This document shows, piece after piece, positions 36,908-61,592 of a stretch of DNA of 64,000 bases; the first letter of the stretch is position 1; each line of letters starts with the position of its first letter. The stretch lies in the NCBI RefSeq assembly GCF_016026235.1, contig NZ_CP065613.1; one strand, written 5' to 3'. The translations under genes and the position numbers were made by a program. The notes under the pieces were generated by a model. That model saw nothing but the letters and a program-made list of their open reading frames with translations. It had not been told where the DNA came from and searched no databases. Origin of the DNA: Escherichia coli. GTDB lineage: Bacteria > Pseudomonadota > Gammaproteobacteria > Enterobacterales > Enterobacteriaceae.

Positions 36908-38047
<1,140 letters not shown>

Positions 38048-38051
38048 TCAG

Positions 38052-38327
38052 CTATTTAAGATAGGCACGAACCAGTTCAATAGTGTCGTCAACGGATTGG
38101 CTGACTTCGCGGCTGTAGCAGTCATTTCGGTCAAACGTTTCCCGGATATGGCTTTCAAGCACTTCTGCCATCAGCCCATTAGCCGCGCCCCGAACGGCAG
38201 CGATCTGTTGGAGTATGGCACGGCATTCGGCATCACCCTCCAGCGACCGTTCCAGAGCATCAATCTGCCCTCGAATACGACGAACTCGAGTAAGGACCTT
38301 TTTCTTCTCTTCCGGAGTACTGGGCAT
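38052..38327 (-). CDS. frmR: Formaldehyde-responsive repressor (CsoR/RcnR family), 91 aa
   Basis: Start at [10 protein letters not shown]; small all-helical repressor. Confidence 0.9.
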
Positions 38328-38353
38328 TTCGCACCTCATCATCTGCACGCAAT

Positions 38354-38402
38354 ATACTATAGGGGGGTATGCTATATGTCAATACATACCCCCCTATAGT
38401 AT
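38354..38402. promoter_or_regulatory. Candidate FrmR operator: two perfect 17-bp inverted repeats with G6/C6 tracts
   Basis: ATACTATAGGGGGGTAT at 38354-38370 and ATACCCCCCTATAGTAT at 38386-38402, immediately upstream of frmR. Confidence 0.7.
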
Positions 38403-38445
38403 ATAACACTGGAGAATAATTGTTGTCCGAAGCCTAACCAGGTGA

Positions 38446-38473
38446 ACGGTCCCTCAAGACAGATGGGGACCGT
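38446..38473. other. Hairpin acggtccc/gggaccgt immediately downstream of afuC; possible transcriptional insulator between the afu cluster and the frmR promoter
   Basis: 8-bp stem with 12-nt loop; no clear U-tract on the afu strand. Confidence 0.3.
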
Positions 38474-38486
38474 TTATGTGCTATTT

Positions 38487-39533
38487 TTATGCCGCATCCG
38501 CTAAAACAAACATCCCGTAAGGATGGATTTCGAGGTAATAGTGCTCACCAATATCGGGCTGTAAACGGGTGGCGTTTACTTGTAATAAAATCTCCTGTCC
38601 ATGCCACTCTACGGTCACTTCGTACTGCGGCCCCATGTAGGCGACATGGCGAATAACACAACGCTGACTCTCTTCGCCGTGATTGCTTAAGGTGATGGCT
38701 TCCGGGCGAACGCCGACGGTGCCGCTACCTTGCGCCGGGAAATGCGCCGCGCGCGGCAGGCGATAACCGTAGATATCGACATACTCTTCGCTAAAGTTCG
38801 CCGGGAACAGGTTGGCGTCGCCCATAAAACTTGCCATAAAGCGGGAGGCTGGCTGACGATAGAGCTCCTGCGGTGAGCCAATCTGCATGATGTGACCTTT
38901 ATTCATCACCAGCACAGTGTCGGACACCGCGAAAGCTTCACTTTGATCGTGAGTGACGTAGAGCGACGTGATATTAAACTGCTTTTGCAGCTCGCGGATC
39001 TTATCGCGCATACTGCGGCGCAGGTTGGCATCGAGGTTACTTAACGGCTCATCAAACAGCAGCACCTTTGGCTTGAGGATCAACGCGCGGGCCAGTGCCA
39101 CTCGCTGTTGCTGACCACCGGAAATCTGATCGACATAGCGGTCCTCGAAGCCTTCCAGATCCACCATTGCCAGCGCCTCCTTCACCCGCTGTTTCACTTC
39201 GCTACGCGAGACGCCAAGCATCTTCAGCCCGTAGCCAACGTTTTCACCCAGCGACATATGCGGGAACAGAGCGTATGACTGAAACACCATGCAGATATCG
39301 CGCTGTTGAATGGAACGATGCGTGACATCTTCGCCATCAATAAAAATTTGCCCTTCGCTCGGTTTTTCCAGCCCGGCAACCAGACGCAAAATGGTGGTTT
39401 TGCCACAGCCGGAAGGACCGAGCAGCGTCACCATTTGCCCTTGTGGAATGGTGAGATTGATATTGTCGATAACCGTATTACTGCCGAATCGTTTAGTGAC
39501 GTTGCGCAGTTCAACAAAATTTTTCTGACTCAT
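38487..39533 (-). CDS. afuC: ABC transporter ATP-binding subunit (AfuC/FbpC-type), about 348 aa
   Basis: Walker [13 protein letters not shown] signature [12 protein letters not shown], Walker B LLFDEP; start at MSQKNF, with an alternative ATG at 39545 overlapping the afuB stop. Confidence 0.85.
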
Positions 39534-39544
39534 ATTGCGCTCCA

Positions 39545-41623
39545 TTACGCCTGGTTTTTGGCTTTAGAACGGGAGATACGAGCTTCTCCGATCAGCCAGT
39601 CAAAGAGGAAAATAATCGCCAGCATCACCACGATCAGAATCGAACCATAGGCGATGGCTACGCCATATTCGCCGTCTTCAACGCGGTTAAGAATGTAGGC
39701 GGTTGCCACGCGGGTGTCCGGCGTGACGAGAAAGACGATGGCGCTGACCGTCGTGATGGCCCGCACAAAGCTGTAGATCAGGGCCGAGAGAATGGCCGGA
39801 CGCAGCAGCGGCAGTAAAATGTGGGTTATGGTTCGCAAGGAACCCGCGCGCAGGCTGAGTGAGGCTTCATCCAGCGATTTGTCGATCTGCCCCAGACCCG
39901 CAATCCCGGCGCGAATACCCACCGGAACGTTACGCATCACCATCGAGATAATCACAATTGCCGCCGTTCCGGTGAGATAAACCGGAGCGCTGTTAAAGGC
40001 AAGAATATACGAAACGCCCGCCACCGTACCCGGTACGGCAAAGCACAGCATGGTGGTGAACTCGATGGTCTTTTTGCCTTTGAATTGTTGACGCACCACC
40101 ACCCAGGCGATGAGCAGGCCAAAGATAGCGGTAATGGGAGCGGCAATCCCGGCGTAGAGCAGGGTATCCAGCAGTGAAGGCCACGCGCCGTCGCTCATTC
40201 CCTGACCAAATAGCTTGATAAAGTTATCCAGCGTCAGGGTGTAGTCCACGCCCCAGTTCACCGTGAAGCTGCCGTAGAAAATGCTGCCGTAGAGCAGGGC
40301 GTTAAAGGCAATCCATATCGCAAGTATGGCGACCACGCTCCACACCAGGGTGACCGGTAGCGGCTGGACGTCGCCACGGTAGGATTTGCCGGAAACCGTG
40401 ACGTAAGAGCGTTTACCAATCCACATATACTGGATGCAGAACACCAGCAGCGAGAACAGCAGCAGGAAAGCGCCAAGGGTGCTGGCGGCCTGATAATCCA
40501 GCTGCGAGCCGGTAATATAGAAGTAAATTTGCGTCGCCAGTACGTCGAAGTTACCGCCAAGTACCAGCGGGTTACTGAAATCAGCCAGTGACTGTACCAC
40601 GACGATTAAAAAGGCATTGGCGAGTGCGGGCTTCAACAACGGCACAAACACGCCGTTAAAGGTTTGCCAGCGGCTGGCGCGCAGGGTGTAGGAGGCCTCT
40701 TCCAGCGAGGGATGAATGGTTTTAATGGCCCCGTCGAGGATCATAAATGCCATTGGCGTGAATGCCAGAACCTGTGCCAGCCAGATCCCGGTAAAACCGT
40801 ACAGCCAGTTGGTGTTGGTCAGCCCAAACCACTCCACCATAAATTCCGTAACATAGCCGGAGCGCCCCATCATGAGCGTCACGCCTAAGCCGACCACAAA
40901 CGGTGGCGTAACGATGGGCAAAATGGAAAAGATGCGACCAATAATGGCGCTGCGTTTAGCGATGCGCGTGGTATAAATCGCCAGCACCAGGCCGAAGAAA
41001 GTACAGCCTATCCCCACCGCTATCGACAAGACGATAGAGTTGACGATCACCTGAACAATATGTGCCTGCGAGAGCACGGTCATAAACGCCAGCGGGGCGA
41101 ACTCTCCCGCGTCGTTGGTGAACATCGGGATAAAAATGGCGATGCTCGGCCAGACGATAAAAATGCCAATCAGCGCCACAATCGCAATCAGTGAGCCGAT
41201 CACGAAGCGGTCGCCACCCAGCCATTCGAGGCGGGTTAAGGCCAGCGTCATAATCGCGCCTAGTTCGACAAACAGCACGATGGCGGCGTAGCCTAAACCG
41301 CGTCCAACCACGGTGGCGCTGATGACGATAAACGCCATACAGAGCAATGCCCAGCCGGCATCGAAATAATGACGGCTACGTTGTTCGCGCGTGGCCTCAC
41401 TAAACGGGCGGACCAGCAACAGGCTCGGGAGTAAATACCACAGCCAGCTGATATTAAAATGCGACCAGCCGTACGCCCCGAGGATCTCATCACTCGTGGA
41501 CTCCAGCAGGCCATAATCGAGGCTCCAGCTCGGCAACAGTATAAATGCCAGCCAGCCCAGCAAAACCCAAAGGAAAATCGCATCCCGCTTTTTCACGGGA
41601 TGGAGTGCAAGTGTCTGTGACAT
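39545..41623 (-). CDS. afuB: ABC transporter permease, fused two-domain type (AfuB/FbpB-like), 692 aa
   Basis: 692-aa polytopic membrane protein with duplicated permease domains; lies between afuA and afuC. Confidence 0.85.
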
Positions 41624-41691
41624 AGCAGTTCCGGTATGGTTGGCCGGGGCAGGCGTTTGTGCTGCACCCGGAAAATACGCCTAATGCGGGT

Positions 41692-42723
41692 TTATTTACC
41701 CATCTTCACTTCGCTGACCCATTTATTAATCAATGCCTTACGAACATCCGTGGAACCATATTTATCCATGTCGTAGTTGATTAATTTCAGGTCGTCGAGC
41801 TTCAGTGAATTTGGCGACGTTTCGGCGGTGGTATTGGTCAGGATCTGATAAGACTTCCCTTTCTTCCACGCCAGTTCCTGAGCTTCTTTTGATAATACCC
41901 AGTCCACAAACAGTTTGGCGTTGTCGAGGTTGCGCGCGCCTTTCAGAATGCTGACGCCGCCAATTTCGTAGCCTGTACCTTCACACGGGGAAATCAACTC
42001 CAGCGGCGCGCCCTGTTCTTTTTCCAGCGAGTAGTCATGCAGGAAGCCAATACCAATCGCCGTTTCGCCACGGGCGGCGTTACGTGCCGGGGCTATGCCT
42101 GATTTGGTGTACTGAGAGACGTTGGCGTTCAGTTGTTTTAGATAATCAAAGGCCTGATCTTCCCCCCACAGCTGCGCAAAAGTAGCCAGGGCGGTGTAGG
42201 CAGTACCGGAACTTTGCGGATCGGCAATTTGAATTTCGCCTTTATATTCCGGTTTGGTGAGATCTTTCCAGCACTTCGGCACCGGCAGGTTTTTCTCTTT
42301 CAGACGATCGGTGTTTACGCCAAAACCGAGGATCCCCACATAAACGGCAGAGGACAGATTCCCTTTCACTTTTGCCGGATCGCGGAATTTCTCCATGATC
42401 TGCTCAAGGTTAGGGGATTTATACGCCTGTAGCAGGCCCATCTCGCCAGCCTGCGATTGTGGGTCTAAAGTGCCGCCGTACCAGACGTCAGCCTGGGGGT
42501 TTTTCTTTTCAGCATCGACTTTTGCCAGGGTGCTTCCGGAACCGTTGCGGATAAACGAGGTTTTTACATCATATTTCTCGCCAAACGCTTTGGTTTCGGC
42601 CTCACACATTTCATTGGTGGCGCTGCAATAGACCACCAGCCGGCCTTTTGCCTGCGCGGCACCCGTTAAAGTCGCCAGCGCAACGGCAGAAGCAATCAGA
42701 GTAGAGGTAAAGGTCATTTTCAT
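41692..42723 (-). CDS. afuA: Periplasmic substrate-binding protein (AfuA/FbpA-like), 343 aa
   Basis: Signal peptide MKMTFTSTLIASAVALATLTGAAQA; start at 42723, overlapping the stop of the upstream MFS gene by 2 nt. Confidence 0.8.
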   Translation of the reverse strand: MKMTFTSTLIASAVALATLTGAAQAKGRLVVYCSATNEMCEAETKAFGEKYDVKTSFIRNGSGSTLAKVDAEKKNPQADVWYGGTLDPQSQAGEMGLLQAYKSPNLEQIMEKFRDPAKVKGNLSSAVYVGILGFGVNTDRLKEKNLPVPKCWKDLTKPEYKGEIQIADPQSSGTAYTALATFAQLWGEDQAFDYLKQLNANVSQYTKSGIAPARNAARGETAIGIGFLHDYSLEKEQGAPLELISPCEGTGYEIGGVSILKGARNLDNAKLFVDWVLSKEAQELAWKKGKSYQILTNTTAETSPNSLKLDDLKLINYDMDKYGSTDVRKALINKWVSEVKMGK

Positions 42724-44036
42724 TGTTTTATCCTTCGAGCGTGAGTGGTGGTGATGCCCGCCATCAGTAACGGCATCAGCAGTAAACCCATAAGTACTGC
42801 GGCGACCGAGAGTAAACTGAACATTCCCGGCCAGCCGTAGCGTTCGATGACCAGCGACAGCGGCCAGCCTGCCAGCGCTGCGCCAAGGTAAGCGAACAGG
42901 CCGAGAAATCCGGTGATTGAACCCGCCGCAGCTTTGTGCCCACACTCCACCGCCGCAAGTCCAATCAGCATTTGTGGGCCAAAGACGAAAAAGCCCACGG
43001 TAAAAAAGCACACTGCCAGCAGAGCGTAGTGATGAACCGGTGCCAGCCACAGTGCGGCGACTGACACCATCAACCCCAACGTGAACAGCAAAATCATTGG
43101 CGCTCGTTGCCCGCTAAACAGCAAATCCGATCCCCATCCGGCAAATAACGCGCCGAGTAAGCCGCCCACTTCAAACAGCATTACCGTGGCGTTGGCGCTG
43201 AGCAGGTTGACACCGTGGCTTTCCGTCAGCCAGATATTGCCCCAGTCGTTAAGCGCAATCCGGATCACATAAACCAGTACATAAGAGACGCCCAGTAGCC
43301 AGATCAGCGGATTTTGCAGCATGGTGGTGCGCAACATTTGCCACAGCCCCATCGGCGGACTTTGTTGTTCCTGACGTAACTCCAGCGGATCGTGACGCCA
43401 GTGACCAACTGTCGGTAATCCCTCTTCCTGGGGCGTGCCTTTGAGTTGTAGCGTTAACCAGATCCCTAATGCCATGCTGATTATCCCCGGTGTCAGCATC
43501 GCGGCCTGCCAGCCCCACCAGTGGGCGGCAAAGGCGCTAATCAGCGGAATAATCGCTCCGCCAATGTTGATCGACATATTCCAGCAGCCCCACCAGAAAC
43601 CGCGCTCATTGCGTGAGTACCAGTGGGTCAGCAAGCGGGCACACGGTGGCCATCCCCAGCCCTGAAAAAAACCGTTCAGTGTCCAGACCACAAGCAGAAG
43701 CGTAAGTGATTCGCCAAAGGCAAACACCACGTTCAATAACCCGGTGGCGAACAAGCCGACGCCCATAAAACCGCGTTGTCCGTGGCTGTCATGCCACAGT
43801 CCGGCGGTAAATTTCGACAATCCGTAGCTGAGATAAAACAGCGAACCCAGCAGGCCAATGTCGCCTTTATCCAGTCCGAGGTCGGTTTGTAGCGCCGGAA
43901 GGACGTAATTCACGCTTTTTCGCGTCAGATAAAATGCGGCGTAGCCAATAATCATGCACATCAGCAATCGCGGACGTAATGTCCGGTAGCATTGATCAAT
44001 TTCTCTCGCTGAACGCGCGTGCATGGTTGTCTCCAT
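42720..44036 (-). CDS. UhpC-like MFS sugar-phosphate sensor/transporter, 438 aa
   Basis: MFS organophosphate:phosphate antiporter family; UhpC-like blocks FFQGWGWPPCARLLTHWYSRNERGFWW and FFVFGPQMLIGLAAVECGHKAAAGSITGF. Confidence 0.8.
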   Translation of the reverse strand: METTMHARSAREIDQCYRTLRPRLLMCMIIGYAAFYLTRKSVNYVLPALQTDLGLDKGDIGLLGSLFYLSYGLSKFTAGLWHDSHGQRGFMGVGLFATGLLNVVFAFGESLTLLLVVWTLNGFFQGWGWPPCARLLTHWYSRNERGFWWGCWNMSINIGGAIIPLISAFAAHWWGWQAAMLTPGIISMALGIWLTLQLKGTPQEEGLPTVGHWRHDPLELRQEQQSPPMGLWQMLRTTMLQNPLIWLLGVSYVLVYVIRIALNDWGNIWLTESHGVNLLSANATVMLFEVGGLLGALFAGWGSDLLFSGQRAPMILLFTLGLMVSVAALWLAPVHHYALLAVCFFTVGFFVFGPQMLIGLAAVECGHKAAAGSITGFLGLFAYLGAALAGWPLSLVIERYGWPGMFSLLSVAAVLMGLLLMPLLMAGITTTHARRIKQ

Positions 44037-44108
44037 GTTGCTGACTATATGAAAATGAAAGTGAAAGGGGATGAGAGAAAATCCGGGATACCTAAGACTT
44101 TTTCCTGG

Positions 44109-45650
44109 TTATCCGGCGATTTGTTGCAAAAATGTGGGCAAGTTAACAATTACCCGCGTGCCGTGCTGTTTTTCGAGCGTTAAGTCGCCGCCCAGGGCGC
44201 TGACGCGCTCACGCATCCCCTGAATGCCAAATCCGGCCATTTTCCCGCTGGCGATCCCCACACCGTTGTCGCTGACTTCCAGATGCAATACCTCTCCCTG
44301 CTGGCGCAGGATAATCGTCACTTCGCTGGCTTCGGCGTGTTTACAGATGTTATTGAGCAACTCCTGCAATAACCGATACAAGGTAAAGCGCACCGTTTCG
44401 TTTTCTGGTGTGGAGTTCAGTTGATAGGCAAACTGGCAATGAATGCCGCGTTCACTAAAGGCAAATTCATTAATCAGATGCAGCAACGCTTCGCGAAATG
44501 TCAGTTCATCAAGCGCGGGAGGCCGCAACTGGCGCAGCAATTGGCGGGTGGAGAGATGAATGCGGCGGGCGAGCTCATTGATTTGGCTGGCTGCGGATTG
44601 AATTTGCGCCGGATCACGCGCCCGCTTCACCAGTTGCGACTGGATCTGAATGGCGGTGATGTTCTGACCGATTTCGTCGTGCAGCTCTCGCGCCAGGTTT
44701 TTTCGCGTGTCCTCCTCGGTGTGGATCAGCTTTTCCGCCAATGCCCGCCGCGCTGCCAGCTCGGCCTCCAGCCGTTGTCGGTAATGGTGCAGGTTTAGCG
44801 CCAGATGTTGCTGGCGACTGATGGCAATGCCCAGGCCAATTCCCAGCAAGGCCTGGGTCGCGAGGAAAATCTCCAGCTCCACCAGGTTACTAAAGCCCAC
44901 GCCAATCTGGCGGGCGATGGTGATCATCATGCTGCCCAAAAGCCCGGAGAGTACGCCACCTTGCCAGCCAAATTTCCACGCCATCACCACATTGGGCAAA
45001 AAGACCACGATCAACAGCAGACGTTCAATTTCAGGTGACAGCACCATCTGAGTGCCGATACCAATAATAAAAAACAGGCTACACCAGATGATTAAAGAGG
45101 TACGCAAGGGGGGATTATGCGTATCGAGTCCCAGGAGCTGGTAGCGATGCTGCTGGCGCAGAAACTCAAAGATAAGATAGACAAACGGCGTCAGTAATAC
45201 GCCGCCGGTAAATGAGGTCAAACCCGGCAGCATTATTGGGCCTGACATAAAAGGGGAGAGCAGGGCGGTATTCAACAATGAAGCTGCCGTGACAGTGGCT
45301 AACAGCAACGTCAGACGCTGCCAGTAAAGTGGAAAACGGTGCCAGAAGTTTTGCGCGAGGAGGACAGGAAACAGGCTAATAACCGGCGTTGCCAGCATGA
45401 GATAACCGTTCAATAGCTGTTCACTATGGAGCCAGAACATCATCAGCAAAGGGGGGAGCACCAACGCAGGCCAGTAGCGGCGAGAGAGCAAAATAACAAG
45501 GGCGAGATAAACTCCCTGCGGGAGAAACAACACCGCCTGTTGACCGTTATTGGTCAGATAAAAGCTGAGCGTCCACAGCATCAGCCAGCCGGTTCCCCAG
45601 GCCAGCACAATAAACAGCGAAATCACCCAATGACGAAGATTGCGCGACAT
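44109..45650 (-). CDS. UhpB-like sensor histidine kinase (polytopic N-terminal domain, HisKA_3, HATPase), 513 aa
   Basis: H-box LARELHDEIGQ, C-terminal ATPase (EVSDNGVGI ... GFGIQGMRERV), about 8 TM helices. Confidence 0.8.
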   Translation of the reverse strand: MSRNLRHWVISLFIVLAWGTGWLMLWTLSFYLTNNGQQAVLFLPQGVYLALVILLSRRYWPALVLPPLLMMFWLHSEQLLNGYLMLATPVISLFPVLLAQNFWHRFPLYWQRLTLLLATVTAASLLNTALLSPFMSGPIMLPGLTSFTGGVLLTPFVYLIFEFLRQQHRYQLLGLDTHNPPLRTSLIIWCSLFFIIGIGTQMVLSPEIERLLLIVVFLPNVVMAWKFGWQGGVLSGLLGSMMITIARQIGVGFSNLVELEIFLATQALLGIGLGIAISRQQHLALNLHHYRQRLEAELAARRALAEKLIHTEEDTRKNLARELHDEIGQNITAIQIQSQLVKRARDPAQIQSAASQINELARRIHLSTRQLLRQLRPPALDELTFREALLHLINEFAFSERGIHCQFAYQLNSTPENETVRFTLYRLLQELLNNICKHAEASEVTIILRQQGEVLHLEVSDNGVGIASGKMAGFGIQGMRERVSALGGDLTLEKQHGTRVIVNLPTFLQQIAG

Positions 45651-46279
45651 TAATGCCCCGCCAGCAGATGGTGGTCGAGCGCAAAATGTACCAGTTCAAT
45701 GGTGCTATGGCAGTTCAGTTTTCCCAGCACATTGGCGCGATGCACATGTACCGTTTTATGACTGAGTTCGAGTTTAAAGGCGATCTCTTTAACGCTGTCT
45801 CCTTTGACCAGTAAATCAAACACTTCACGTTCTCGTGGGGTGAGAATTTCCAGCGCCTGGGCGGGTTGCCCGCCGCCGCGTAAAGCCCGAATCGCATCGG
45901 CACAGAGATAATGCCCGCCCAGCCCGACCGAGCGCACCGCCTGCACTAACTCTTCCGGCCCACAGCGTTTGGTTAAATACCCGCTGGCACCGGCATCCAG
46001 CGCGCTTTGCACAAAGGTTGGCGCGTCATAAATGCTAAGAATAATGGCGCGAAATTGCGGTTTTTGTGCACGCAGGCGCTTAAGCAAACTGAGGCCGTTT
46101 TCGTCCGGCATGGCAATATCAATGACGGCAACATTGACGTCATCACGGATTAATGCCGACCATGCCTGCGCGGCACTACTGTACTGACCAATGACCTCCA
46201 GATCGTCTTCCAGAGAGAGTAATTGTGCGAAGCCAGAGCGCACCACCACATGGTCATCCACCAGCACTACCCGAATCAT
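45650..46279 (-). CDS. UhpA-like response regulator (NarL/FixJ family, LuxR-type HTH), 209 aa
   Basis: Receiver domain VVLVDDHVVVRSGF ... DIAMPDENG; C-terminal LTPREREVF ... SHKTVHVHRANVLGKL. Confidence 0.85.
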   Translation of the reverse strand: MIRVVLVDDHVVVRSGFAQLLSLEDDLEVIGQYSSAAQAWSALIRDDVNVAVIDIAMPDENGLSLLKRLRAQKPQFRAIILSIYDAPTFVQSALDAGASGYLTKRCGPEELVQAVRSVGLGGHYLCADAIRALRGGGQPAQALEILTPREREVFDLLVKGDSVKEIAFKLELSHKTVHVHRANVLGKLNCHSTIELVHFALDHHLLAGH

Positions 46280-46581
46280 ACTTTTCTTCTCTTATTATCT
46301 AATTCTCCTATCATGCATCACGGCGCGGCGCTGGCAATCAACCAGCGACAGATATGGAATGGATGTAACAAAATGGCAATAATTTGCCGGAGCGCGCACA
46401 TCTTATCTGGCTTGTGAACCGGCGGGATACGTTCGCCAAAACCGCAAAATGCGCAAACTCGCTAACCATTGCCGATTTTTTTCTAAAAACGCTTTGTTCT
46501 TAACAAGACCTTTTAATTCCTTTATCAAACTGACCCGCAACGAAATACTGCTCCCATAACAAGACAGGGGAGCAGACAATC

Positions 46582-47544
46582 ATGGCAATTTCATCGCGTA
46601 ACACACTTCTTGCCGCACTGGCATTCATCGCTTTTCAGGCACAGGCGGTGAACGTCACCGTGGCGTATCAAACCTCAGCCGAACCGGCGAAAGTGGCTCA
46701 GGCCGACAACACCTTTGCTAAAGAAAGCGGAGCAACCGTGGACTGGCGTAAGTTTGACAGCGGAGCCAGCATCGTGCGGGCGCTGGCTTCAGGCGACGTG
46801 CAAATCGGCAACCTCGGTTCCAGCCCGTTAGCGGTTGCAGCCAGCCAACAGGTGCCGATTGAAGTCTTCTTGCTGGCGTCAAAACTGGGTAACTCCGAAG
46901 CGCTGGTGGTAAAGAAAACTATCAGCAAACCGGAAGATCTGATTGGCAAACGCATCGCCGTACCGTTTATCTCCACCACCCACTACAGCCTGCTGGCGGC
47001 GCTGAAACACTGGGGCATTAAACCCGGGCAAGTGGAGATTGTGAACCTGCAGCCGCCCGCGATTATCGCTGCCTGGCAGCGGGGAGACATTGATGGTGCT
47101 TATGTCTGGGCACCGGCGGTTAACGCCCTGGAAAAAGACGGCAAGGTGCTGACCGATTCTGAACAGGTCGGGCAGTGGGGCGCGCCAACGCTGGACGTTT
47201 GGGTGGTGCGCAAAGATTTTGCCGAGAAACATCCTGAGGTCGTGAAAGCGTTCGCTAAAAGCGCCATCGATGCTCAGCAACCGTACATTGCTAACCCAGA
47301 CGTGTGGCTGAAACAGCCGGAAAACATCAGCAAACTGGCGCGTTTAAGCGGCGTGCCTGAAGGTGACGTTCCGGGGCTGGTGAAGGGGAATACCTATCTG
47401 ACGCCGCAGCAACAAACGGCAGAACTGACCGGACCGGTGAACAAAGCGATTATCGACACCGCGCAGTTTTTGAAAGAGCAGGGCAAGGTCCCGGCTGTAG
47501 CGAATGATTACAGCCAGTACGTTACCTCGCGCTTCGTGCAATAA
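46582..47544 (+). CDS. tauA: Taurine-binding periplasmic protein, 320 aa
   Basis: Signal peptide, NMT1/SsuA-like binding protein; first gene of tauABCD. Confidence 0.95.
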   Translation: MAISSRNTLLAALAFIAFQAQAVNVTVAYQTSAEPAKVAQADNTFAKESGATVDWRKFDSGASIVRALASGDVQIGNLGSSPLAVAASQQVPIEVFLLASKLGNSEALVVKKTISKPEDLIGKRIAVPFISTTHYSLLAALKHWGIKPGQVEIVNLQPPAIIAAWQRGDIDGAYVWAPAVNALEKDGKVLTDSEQVGQWGAPTLDVWVVRKDFAEKHPEVVKAFAKSAIDAQQPYIANPDVWLKQPENISKLARLSGVPEGDVPGLVKGNTYLTPQQQTAELTGPVNKAIIDTAQFLKEQGKVPAVANDYSQYVTSRFVQ

Positions 47545-61129: not shown

Positions 61130-61592
61130 CTTAAAAACCTATCCCGTCTAACACAAAGTGCATACATTACCACGACAAAACGGGGGATTCGCGGCCTTCT
61201 GAAAGATTGTTGCAATCTTCTGCTGACAAAGCGTGCAACGTACTGGTGAAGAAAGTGCGTTATCTCAAAGATGTGCGCAAGATCACAAAAATGATGAACG
61301 GGAAGCTAATTTATTCCTGGCTTAAATGGCCATGCGGTGAGTTTTTTTTCTCTTAATTATAAGTTAACGAAGAGAATATATTTCATAACTTTTATTTATA
61401 ATAAAGGTTGATAATTAAAAGCCTATATTTTGTGTGGGTAATTATTTAAATAAGAGAAACGTTTCGCTGGTAATCAAACAAAAAATATTTGCGCAAAGTA
61501 TTTCCTTTGTCATAAAAATAATACTTCCAGACACTATGAAGTTGTGAAACATAATGTTAACTTCTCCATACTTTGGATAAGGAAATACAGAC

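Follow-up and report, generated by a model that had tools for sequence, protein, structure and literature searches.

Whether the genes of a sugar-phosphate importer and the sensor genes that precede them are expressed as one operon is the question raised by a six-gene locus of Escherichia coli. The locus lies on the minus strand of a 64,000-nt stretch of contig NZ_CP065613.1; this whole stretch is referred to below as the window, and its coordinates are used throughout. The six open reading frames encode a response regulator, a sensor histidine kinase, a UhpC-like protein of the major facilitator superfamily (MFS), and the AfuA, AfuB and AfuC subunits of an ATP-binding cassette (ABC) importer. 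A first-pass annotation of the sequence had claimed that stop/start overlaps chain all six genes together. That chain is broken in the gap between the kinase and MFS genes, where a conserved promoter with a measured transcription start site (TSS) at 44036 is found. The evidence favors, with a probability of about 70%, a Uhp-type sensing cassette joined to the AfuABC importer and split into two transcription units, as opposed to a single operon held together by translational chaining. The genes are listed here in their order of transcription, with Shine-Dalgarno (SD) sequences where these matter below.

45650..46279, minus strand: response regulator with REC and GerE/LuxR helix-turn-helix domains, UhpA paralogue, FusR (Z0463/ECs_0418), from Pfam and NCBIfam
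44109..45650, minus strand: sensor histidine kinase with MASE1, HisKA_3 and HATPase_c domains (Pfam PF05231, PF07730, PF02518), UhpB paralogue, FusK (Z0462/ECs_0417)
42720..44024, minus strand: UhpC-like MFS gene (OPA family), Z0461/ECs_0416; NCBIfam NF008661 (UhpC) at 589 bits against a cut-off of 564
41692..42723, minus strand: afuA, periplasmic hexose/heptose-phosphate-binding protein, from family searches, with its function from PMC4546632; SD AAGGA at 42735-42731
39545..41623, minus strand: afuB, fused double permease, from family searches
38487..39533, minus strand: afuC (annotated fbpC), ABC ATPase, read from its second ATG; SD GGAG at 39543-39540

The window proteins are 99-100% identical to Sakai ECs_0413-0418, gene lengths and order are alike in Sakai and EDL933 (Z0458-Z0463 / ECs_0413-0418), and the locus sits between frmR and tauA, as do ECs_0413-0418 in Sakai and RS02110-02135 in EDL933. 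Over 8.1 kb the locus matches E. coli FDAARGOS_943 at 100% identity. By these comparisons the locus is assigned to O-island 20 (OI-20) of E. coli, with the content FusR-FusK-Z0461-AfuABC. AfuABC imports glucose-6-phosphate, fructose-6-phosphate and sedoheptulose-7-phosphate (Sit 2015, PMC4546632). Z0462/Z0463 have been published as the fucose sensor FusKR, and Z0461 is the MFS gene.

The regulator (Pfam PF00072 and PF00196) is of the NarL/FixJ type and ~100% identical to the Sakai protein. It shares 48% identity with K-12 UhpA, and the recognition helix, KTVHVHRAN, is the same in both. Its best family match is UhpA at 193 bits, under the cut-off of 258; the best match of the kinase is UhpB at 382 bits against 408, with 35% identity. 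Because both scores fall below the equivalog cut-offs, the two proteins are classed by sequence as paralogues, not orthologues, of UhpA and UhpB. The MFS protein is 53% identical to K-12 UhpC and 29% to UhpT, and no uhpT was found among the genes of the cluster. A substrate-binding protein, a fused double permease and an ATPase together are of the AfuABC/FbpC type in family searches.

This gene set is not confined to E. coli. Species-representative genomes scanned with an alignment of UhpC-like proteins yielded 80 loci from more than 20 Enterobacterales genera, and the order regulator, kinase, MFS, afuA, afuB, afuC is kept in 71 of the 71 that are long enough. The same six-gene order is also present in Vibrio and Proteus, and the complete locus occurs in 518 of 5426 complete E. 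coli genomes.

The promoter of the MFS gene, designated P2, was characterized from an alignment of 27 diverse loci, with spacings counted over 77 loci. Its elements in the window are as follows.

44133..44148, minus strand: CRP-like box TGTTAACTTGCCCACA in the 3' end of the kinase gene, centre ~-104.5 from TSS 44036
44091..44108, minus strand: imperfect palindrome CCAGGAAAAAGTCTTAGG, 17 bp, right behind the kinase stop, centre ~-63.5; candidate site for a regulator dimer
44069..44083, minus strand: conserved block GATTTTCTCTCATCC, in the -47 to -33 region
44036..44049, minus strand: P2 -10 element TATAGT (44049-44044) and TSS 44036, promoter of the MFS-afuABC unit

Within the gap, the footprint runs from the palindrome through a block of the form GAyTTTsTCTCATCC to a -10 element TAnnnT, then GGAG and the ATG at 44024; no -35 hexamer is present in the gap alignment. 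The palindrome is kept in 74 of the 77 related loci, with a perfect version, CTAGGAATTATTCCTAG, in Pectobacterium. The sequence TCTCATCC is near-invariant and stands at a fixed 64 nt from the centre of the CRP-like box, and T1, A2 and T6 of the -10 element are conserved across all genera. The distances from the box centre to palindrome, block and -10 element are 32, 64 and 91 nt in 66 of the 77 loci; Vibrio and Proteus have 31, 63 and 90 nt. A sigma-70 consensus scan did not detect P2, because there is no -35 element to find, and its promoter and terminator counts were no higher than those of shuffled sequences. The search of Rfam gave nothing above threshold in 38000-47000.

The activity of P2 is documented by published Cappable-seq of strain EDL933 in eight conditions (PMC10469882, Tables S5-S7), to which window positions are converted by adding 399652; statements on TSSs below refer to the starts listed there. 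The gene-specific TSS of the MFS gene, 443688 in EDL933 and 44036 in the window, lies 8 nt after TATAGT and is listed in 7/8 conditions. Its mean read scores are 11.8 in LB, 61.7 in minimal medium, 0 in acid and 5.1 in salt during exponential growth, and 72.8, 422.9, 65.7 and 83.6, respectively, in stationary phase, so that the start is highest in stationary minimal medium. An antisense TSS is also listed in this gap (window 44063, plus strand; EDL933 443715(+)) in 8/8 conditions; it points away from P2, into the kinase gene.

The CRP-like box, TGTTAACyTGCCCACA, lies 40 nt ahead of the end of the kinase gene and matches the CRP consensus at 8/10 positions. It is the same in 27/27 representative loci save for spacer positions, with one further spacer change in Vibrio and Proteus. 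Codon alignments of the six genes, with 60-76 sequences per gene, were scanned for synonymous diversity in windows of 8 codons. Of the 1951 windows, the five with the lowest values all fall on the box, with a diversity of 0.049, compared with a gene mean of 0.32 and 0.088 at the next-lowest site elsewhere. No other part of the cluster is under such strong synonymous constraint. Weak terminator-like stems over the box were considered and rejected, as their T-run is not conserved.

The layout of P2 closely resembles that of PuhpT, the K-12 promoter in the uhpC-uhpT intergenic region. In PuhpT a CAP site, CGTGATGCATCTCACC, overlaps the uhpC stop, and CTAAGAAATTTTCCAGG, the block TCTCAGGCC and the -10 element TACAAT follow at 31, 64 and 91 nt from the centre of that site. 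The spacings of 31/64/91 nt in PuhpT and 32/64/91 nt in P2 thus agree to within 1 nt. Read on the other strand, the P2 palindrome is a 14/17 match to CTAAGAAATTTTCCAGG at the equivalent position, and the block TCTCATCC aligns ungapped with TCTCAGGCC. The CAP site and the CRP-like box are both 91 nt from the -10 element, and both promoters are without a -35 element. CRP has been reported at -103 in PuhpT, and UhpA on adjacent strong and weak sites. From the element spacing, the 14/17 palindrome match and the identical recognition helix, P2 is a PuhpT-type promoter placed one gene further upstream. The strong UhpA site of PuhpT is centred near -64, and the P2 palindrome at ~-63.5.

The likeness to the E. 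coli Uhp system extends to the genes. The order regulator, kinase, MFS sensor, the 1-nt overlap of regulator and kinase genes, and the domain architectures are all the same; the MFS protein, encoded directly after the kinase, scores above the cut-off of the UhpC model, and the promoter presumed to be regulated carries a CRP-like site (~-104), a palindrome (~-64), a TCTCA block and a -10 element with no -35. The two systems differ in that the regulated promoter lies here between the kinase and MFS genes (84 bp, as opposed to 9 bp in uhpB/uhpC) and not after the MFS gene, and the regulated unit consists of the UhpC-like gene and an ABC importer, whereas that of Uhp is the UhpT antiporter, whose gene stands behind its own promoter downstream of uhpC. 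Furthermore, the regulator and kinase score under the UhpA and UhpB equivalog cut-offs, and the promoter of the regulator gene has its own conserved CRP-like box here. The contrast drawn in the first-pass annotation, that the transporter here lacks a promoter of its own such as canonical uhp has, was therefore overstated, since a PuhpT-type promoter with matching spacing sits upstream of the UhpC-like gene.

The overlaps on which the proposed chain depended can be read directly from the sequence, and their coordinates were correctly given. The regulator stop TAA (45652-45650) and the kinase ATG (45650-45648) have one base in common (TAATG, 45652-45648), the MFS stop TGA (42722-42720) and the afuA ATG (42723-42721) overlap by 4 nt (ATGA, 42723-42720), and the last base of the afuB stop TAA (39547-39545) is also the first of an ATG at 39545-39543 (TAATG, 39547-39543). 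Such overlaps are real yet ordinary operon packing, no more than chance, because the Sakai annotation has four other 4-nt overlaps in the neighbouring 40 kb (mhpD/F, mhpF/E, tauB/C and tauC/D) and canonical K-12 uhpA/uhpB has a one-base overlap as well.

The overlap of regulator and kinase genes is the sole conserved one of the three, being found in 62 of 73 loci with 0-3 nt between the genes elsewhere. The afuB/afuC overlap disappears on comparison. A second in-frame ATG at 39533-39531, 12 nt further on and preceded by GGAG (39543-39540), had already been pointed out with its SD support, and it proves to be the conserved afuC start: residue 1 of AfuC aligns to position 1 of NF008513 from there, and the annotations of Sakai and of the NCBI Prokaryotic Genome Annotation Pipeline (PGAP) share it. 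Counted to this start, afuB and afuC are always separated by a gap, of 4-59 nt. According to the junction alignment, the ATG at the afuB stop exists solely where the SD happens to read TAATGGAG, of which it is a by-product; other genera have TAACGGAG or TAAGGGAG.

Between the MFS gene and afuA the spacing ranges from -4 to +231 nt. Escherichia, Citrobacter, Klebsiella and Serratia have values of -4 or -1; outside these genera the values are +4 to +60 or more. Of the 76 loci, 72 have a spacing of at most 60 nt (overlap in 37, 0-25 nt in 25 and 26-60 nt in 10), and 4 have more than 100 nt. The close linkage thus appears general and the exact overlap lineage-specific; the afuA ATG itself is at a homologous position across related loci. 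A translationally coupled operon should combine conserved overlaps with the lack of independent SDs, and here AAGGA precedes afuA and GGAG precedes afuC. Since the overlap is not conserved and afuA has an SD of its own, obligatory translational coupling of the MFS gene and afuA seems unlikely. Of the suggestion that the sensor is co-translated with the transporter, the tight MFS-afuA linkage is supported and obligatory coupling is not.

The two remaining junctions are true gaps. From the afuA stop (41692) to the afuB ATG (41623) there are 68 bp (41691-41624), as had been noted, and this gap measures 61-100 bp in most loci. From the kinase stop (44109) to the first MFS ATG (44036) there are 72 bp (44108-44037), a figure that is right as counted. 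This ATG is absent in other genera, however, and its A is the listed 5' end of the mRNA. The conserved MFS start is the second ATG, 44024, with its SD GGAG at 44034-44031, and the real gap is 84 bp, because ATG 44036 is not conserved and coincides with the mRNA 5' end. In 68 of 75 loci the kinase and MFS genes lie 61-100 bp apart, most often 84-89 bp. It should be mentioned that ATG 44036 is the RefSeq start for EDL933, that ATG 44024 is the start chosen for other strains, in the Sakai annotation and by PGAP, and that ATG 44036 could be translated from a leaderless mRNA only.

Upstream of the regulator gene two further starts are found.

46303..46370, minus strand: P1, -35 TTGCCA (46337-46332), -10 CATGAT (46315-46310), TSS 46303, from the consensus scan; gene-specific TSS 445955 in EDL933, listed in 8/8 conditions
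46393..46405, minus strand: P1', -10-like TAAGAT (46405-46400), TSS 46393; gene-specific Cappable-seq TSS 446045 in EDL933, listed in 8/8 conditions

P1 is conserved in the 27 representative loci, from more than 20 genera, and its TSS lies 7 nt after the CATGAT of TTGCCA-16-CATGAT. P1' shows no conservation beyond Escherichia; the upstream alignment diverges at this position. A box in P1, TGTTACATCCATTCCA (46370-46355), is CRP-like at 8/10 positions with its centre at ~-59.5. The usual position of a class I CRP site is -61.5, so the box is 2 nt off, and its assignment as a class I site is uncertain. The box is also direct-repeat-like, TGTTACATCC(A/G)TT(C/A)CA, and is located upstream of the regulator-gene -35 element in all genera.

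In the eight conditions, the kinase gene, afuA, afuB and afuC are all without a listed gene-specific TSS. Internal TSSs in the kinase gene, afuC and afuA are weak, and two in the MFS gene are flagged as degradation. The last 500 nt of the MFS gene contain no listed TSS; independent promoters and terminators between the MFS gene and afuA are what the first-pass annotation had said would refute its claim. Nucleotide conservation is not raised at the 3' end of the MFS gene, where synonymous diversity is 0.35 compared with the gene mean of 0.32. From the close spacing, the lack of a listed afuA-specific TSS and this ordinary 3' end, it is very likely that the MFS gene is co-transcribed with afuABC. 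A conserved promoter within the MFS 3' end was considered as a candidate and rejected on the ordinary synonymous diversity and the listed TSSs.

The 68-bp gap behind afuA is occupied by a predicted hairpin, and another follows afuC.

41644..41671, minus strand: GC-rich hairpin, degenerate element of the repetitive extragenic palindromic (REP) type, from the centroid fold, in the 68-bp afuA|afuB gap
38445..38474, minus strand: hairpin 13 nt past the afuC stop, no T-run, fold -18.9 kcal/mol (66-nt stretch)

In the window the 68-bp gap folds no better than shuffled sequences (z = -0.23), and for this reason the case for the hairpin rests on comparative data. A hairpin is predicted after afuA in 23/23 representative loci examined, REP-like in Citrobacter and Klebsiella and formed by unrelated sequences in Buttiauxella, Rahnella and other distant genera, several of them with T-rich tails. 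In other binding-protein operons, such as malEFG and hisJQMP, the first gene is likewise followed by an intergenic REP element or hairpin. Here too, a GC-rich hairpin stands directly after the binding-protein gene and ahead of the permease gene, although the window copy is degenerate and does not improve on shuffled sequences in folding energy. It is probably an mRNA stabilizer or a partial terminator that favors output of afuA over that of the membrane subunits. The hairpin at 38445..38474 is modeled as a possible 3' end of the transcript, with the frmR promoter next.

Taken together, these features suggest the following arrangement. Unit 1 would comprise the regulator and kinase genes, joined by their 1-nt overlap and transcribed from P1 (TSS 46303) and the extra start at 46393. 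Unit 2 would comprise the UhpC-like MFS gene, afuA, afuB and afuC, transcribed from P2 (TSS 44036) in the 84-bp gap. Judging from the uhpT-promoter architecture, P2 is probably switched on by the phosphorylated regulator together with CRP and cyclic AMP; the dependence of P2 on these two proteins, activation as opposed to repression, and a sugar phosphate as the signal are parts of the model that we infer, whereas the identities of the genes, their junctions and conservation, the geometry of the promoter and the positions of the TSSs are observed. The UhpC-like co-sensor would then be induced alongside the importer on which it reports. The positive feedback that had been proposed would concern the UhpC-like component only, and only if the regulator activates P2. 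Within unit 2, the closeness of the MFS gene to afuA and of afuB to afuC would permit ribosomes to be handed over, each downstream gene having its own SD, and the hairpin after afuA would probably raise the output of the binding protein relative to the membrane subunits.

A single operon of all six genes, with transcription beginning ahead of the regulator gene, overlaps that couple translation and a transporter lacking its own promoter, would explain the overlaps, which are real. Read-through from P1 into the MFS gene is also plausible, because no convincing terminator is present between the kinase and MFS genes; neither the 84-bp nor the 68-bp gap contains one, the terminator-like matches being within shuffle expectation. 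However, TSS 44036 is listed in 7/8 conditions with more than 35-fold variation, and the regulator-gene TSSs in all 8. The promoter footprint in the kinase/MFS gap is conserved and the MFS/afuA and afuB/afuC overlaps are not. In passages describing Sakai arrays, ECs0416 and afuA increase jointly when glucose runs out (37-fold for afuA), and the regulator and kinase genes ECs0418 and ECs0417 are not named there. We therefore regard the single operon as improbable. Much the same holds for an independent promoter of afuABC, or of afuBC alone, placed within the 3' portion of the MFS gene or else inside or close to the 68-bp gap, which would reduce the overlap to a packing artefact. It could draw on a weak TSS listed inside afuA (window 41885, minus strand; EDL933 441537), with read scores of 1.5-7, located 262 nt upstream of the afuB ATG, on a promoter-like match inside afuB (40768-40740, minus strand), and on the MFS/afuA gaps of 138-231 bp in some genera. 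The last 500 nt of the MFS gene, free of listed starts and of unusual synonymous constraint, the two MFS-internal signals flagged as degradation, the MFS/afuA spacing of at most 60 nt in nearly all loci, and a 68-bp gap that holds a hairpin and no promoter-like conservation make this explanation equally hard to sustain.

The published FusKR view, in which the kinase senses L-fucose directly, the regulator represses targets that include z0461 and ler, the MFS protein imports fucose and the linkage to afuABC is incidental to the island, deserves more weight and is still unlikely in our judgment. Its experimental claims are summarized in reviews and in a transcriptome paper, and z0461 and the fuc genes are reported to be co-induced in bovine intestinal contents. 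But the MFS protein passes the curated NCBI UhpC model, the kinase and regulator have the domain architecture of UhpB and UhpA, the recognition helix of the regulator is the same as that of UhpA, and P2, lacking a -35 element, mirrors the activator-dependent PuhpT. The cluster and its promoter are also kept in plant-, insect-, soil- and water-associated genera without the locus of enterocyte effacement.

Several observations weigh against the two-unit, Uhp-type arrangement. The palindrome pattern in the window by itself is at chance level, with 5 matches against 4.6 expected, and the 8/10 match of the CRP-like box includes a weak left half, GTTA as opposed to GTGA. P2 is active in the listed conditions without added sugar phosphate (PMC10469882). 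Co-transcription of the MFS gene with afuABC is deduced from missing TSSs and not from direct observation, the weak TSS 41885 might be a source of low, constitutive afuB and afuC expression, and read-through from P1 probably contributes to expression of the MFS gene. Finally, Segura 2018, citing Pacheco 2012, states that FusKR represses z0461 and responds to fucose; the reported repression and fucose are of opposite sign and a different signal from what the Uhp analogy predicts.

The genes of FusKR/Z0461 described for OI-20 of enterohaemorrhagic E. coli (EHEC) by Pacheco et al. 2012 are the same genes as in the window, ~100% identical to ECs_0418, ECs_0417 and ECs_0416 and likewise between frmR and tauA. 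In the FusKR literature the system is described as sensing fucose, repressing ler and z0461 and being restricted to O157:H7, a 2024 review placing FusKR in EHEC O157:H7, whereas the genes are present here in 518/5426 complete E. coli genomes and more than 20 genera, and their sequence features suggest a circuit that is Uhp-like, of the activator type and tied to AfuABC. For AfuABC (Sit et al. 2015), the order afuA, afuB, afuC is the same, and the Citrobacter rodentium and EHEC orthologues are the characterized transporter; regulation and a promoter in common with the UhpC-like gene were outside the scope of that paper. Earlier papers had already reported the genes, the function of the transporter and the raw TSSs; the overlaps are ordinary, and the architecture is a modest new variant. 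In the literature searched, no link of AfuABC regulation to a PuhpT-like promoter or to a Uhp-like FusKR was found.

Tentatively, at somewhat less than even odds, we propose that FusKR originated as, and perhaps still works as, a second Uhp-type sugar-phosphate sensor, with Z0461 and AfuABC co-induced from a PuhpT-homologous, CRP-assisted promoter. If this is true, the co-sensor would be encoded inside the unit it regulates, giving an autoamplification of the sensor that canonical Uhp lacks, and the signal and sign of FusKR regulation would need re-examination. A promoter conserved from Vibrio to Escherichia with the PuhpT layout, driving a UhpC-like sensor gene together with a virulence-linked sugar-phosphate importer, provides for AfuABC a concrete model of regulation that can be tested; the regulation of this importer is unaddressed in the literature searched. 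As the FusKR genes are widespread and not O157-specific, it may be asked whether fucose or sugar phosphates were the ancestral signal.

A few minor observations concern the wider collection of loci and the rest of the window. Genera with the cluster include Citrobacter, Klebsiella, Raoultella, Serratia, Enterobacter, Buttiauxella, Rahnella, Pectobacterium, Edwardsiella, Proteus and Vibrio. Insertions or broken kinase or afuB genes were found in five loci (L017, from Raoultella planticola, L010, L045, L050 and L061), which suggests occasional decay of the cluster; in L017 the kinase/MFS gap is 278 bp and the TCTCATCC block is parted from the -10 element. In betaproteobacterial Iodobacter (L089, 7870-8001; L090, 2183-2313) a regulator-kinase-MFS trio occurs with no afuABC downstream; its kinase/MFS gap of 130 bp contains a palindrome, CTAAGACTTTTTCTTAG, with a half-site of the same type as in the window. 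Further antisense TSSs are listed at window positions 44441, 40525, 38983 and 38494. Outside this locus, TGTGATCTTGCGCACA at 61272-61287 (minus strand) is a good CRP-type palindrome and matches the P2 box with 3 mismatches. Next to the locus, tauA is an intact 320-residue open reading frame in the window (46582-47544), while in the locus with the 100% afu match (L001, 1957-2919) it carries an internal stop and a pseudogene flag.

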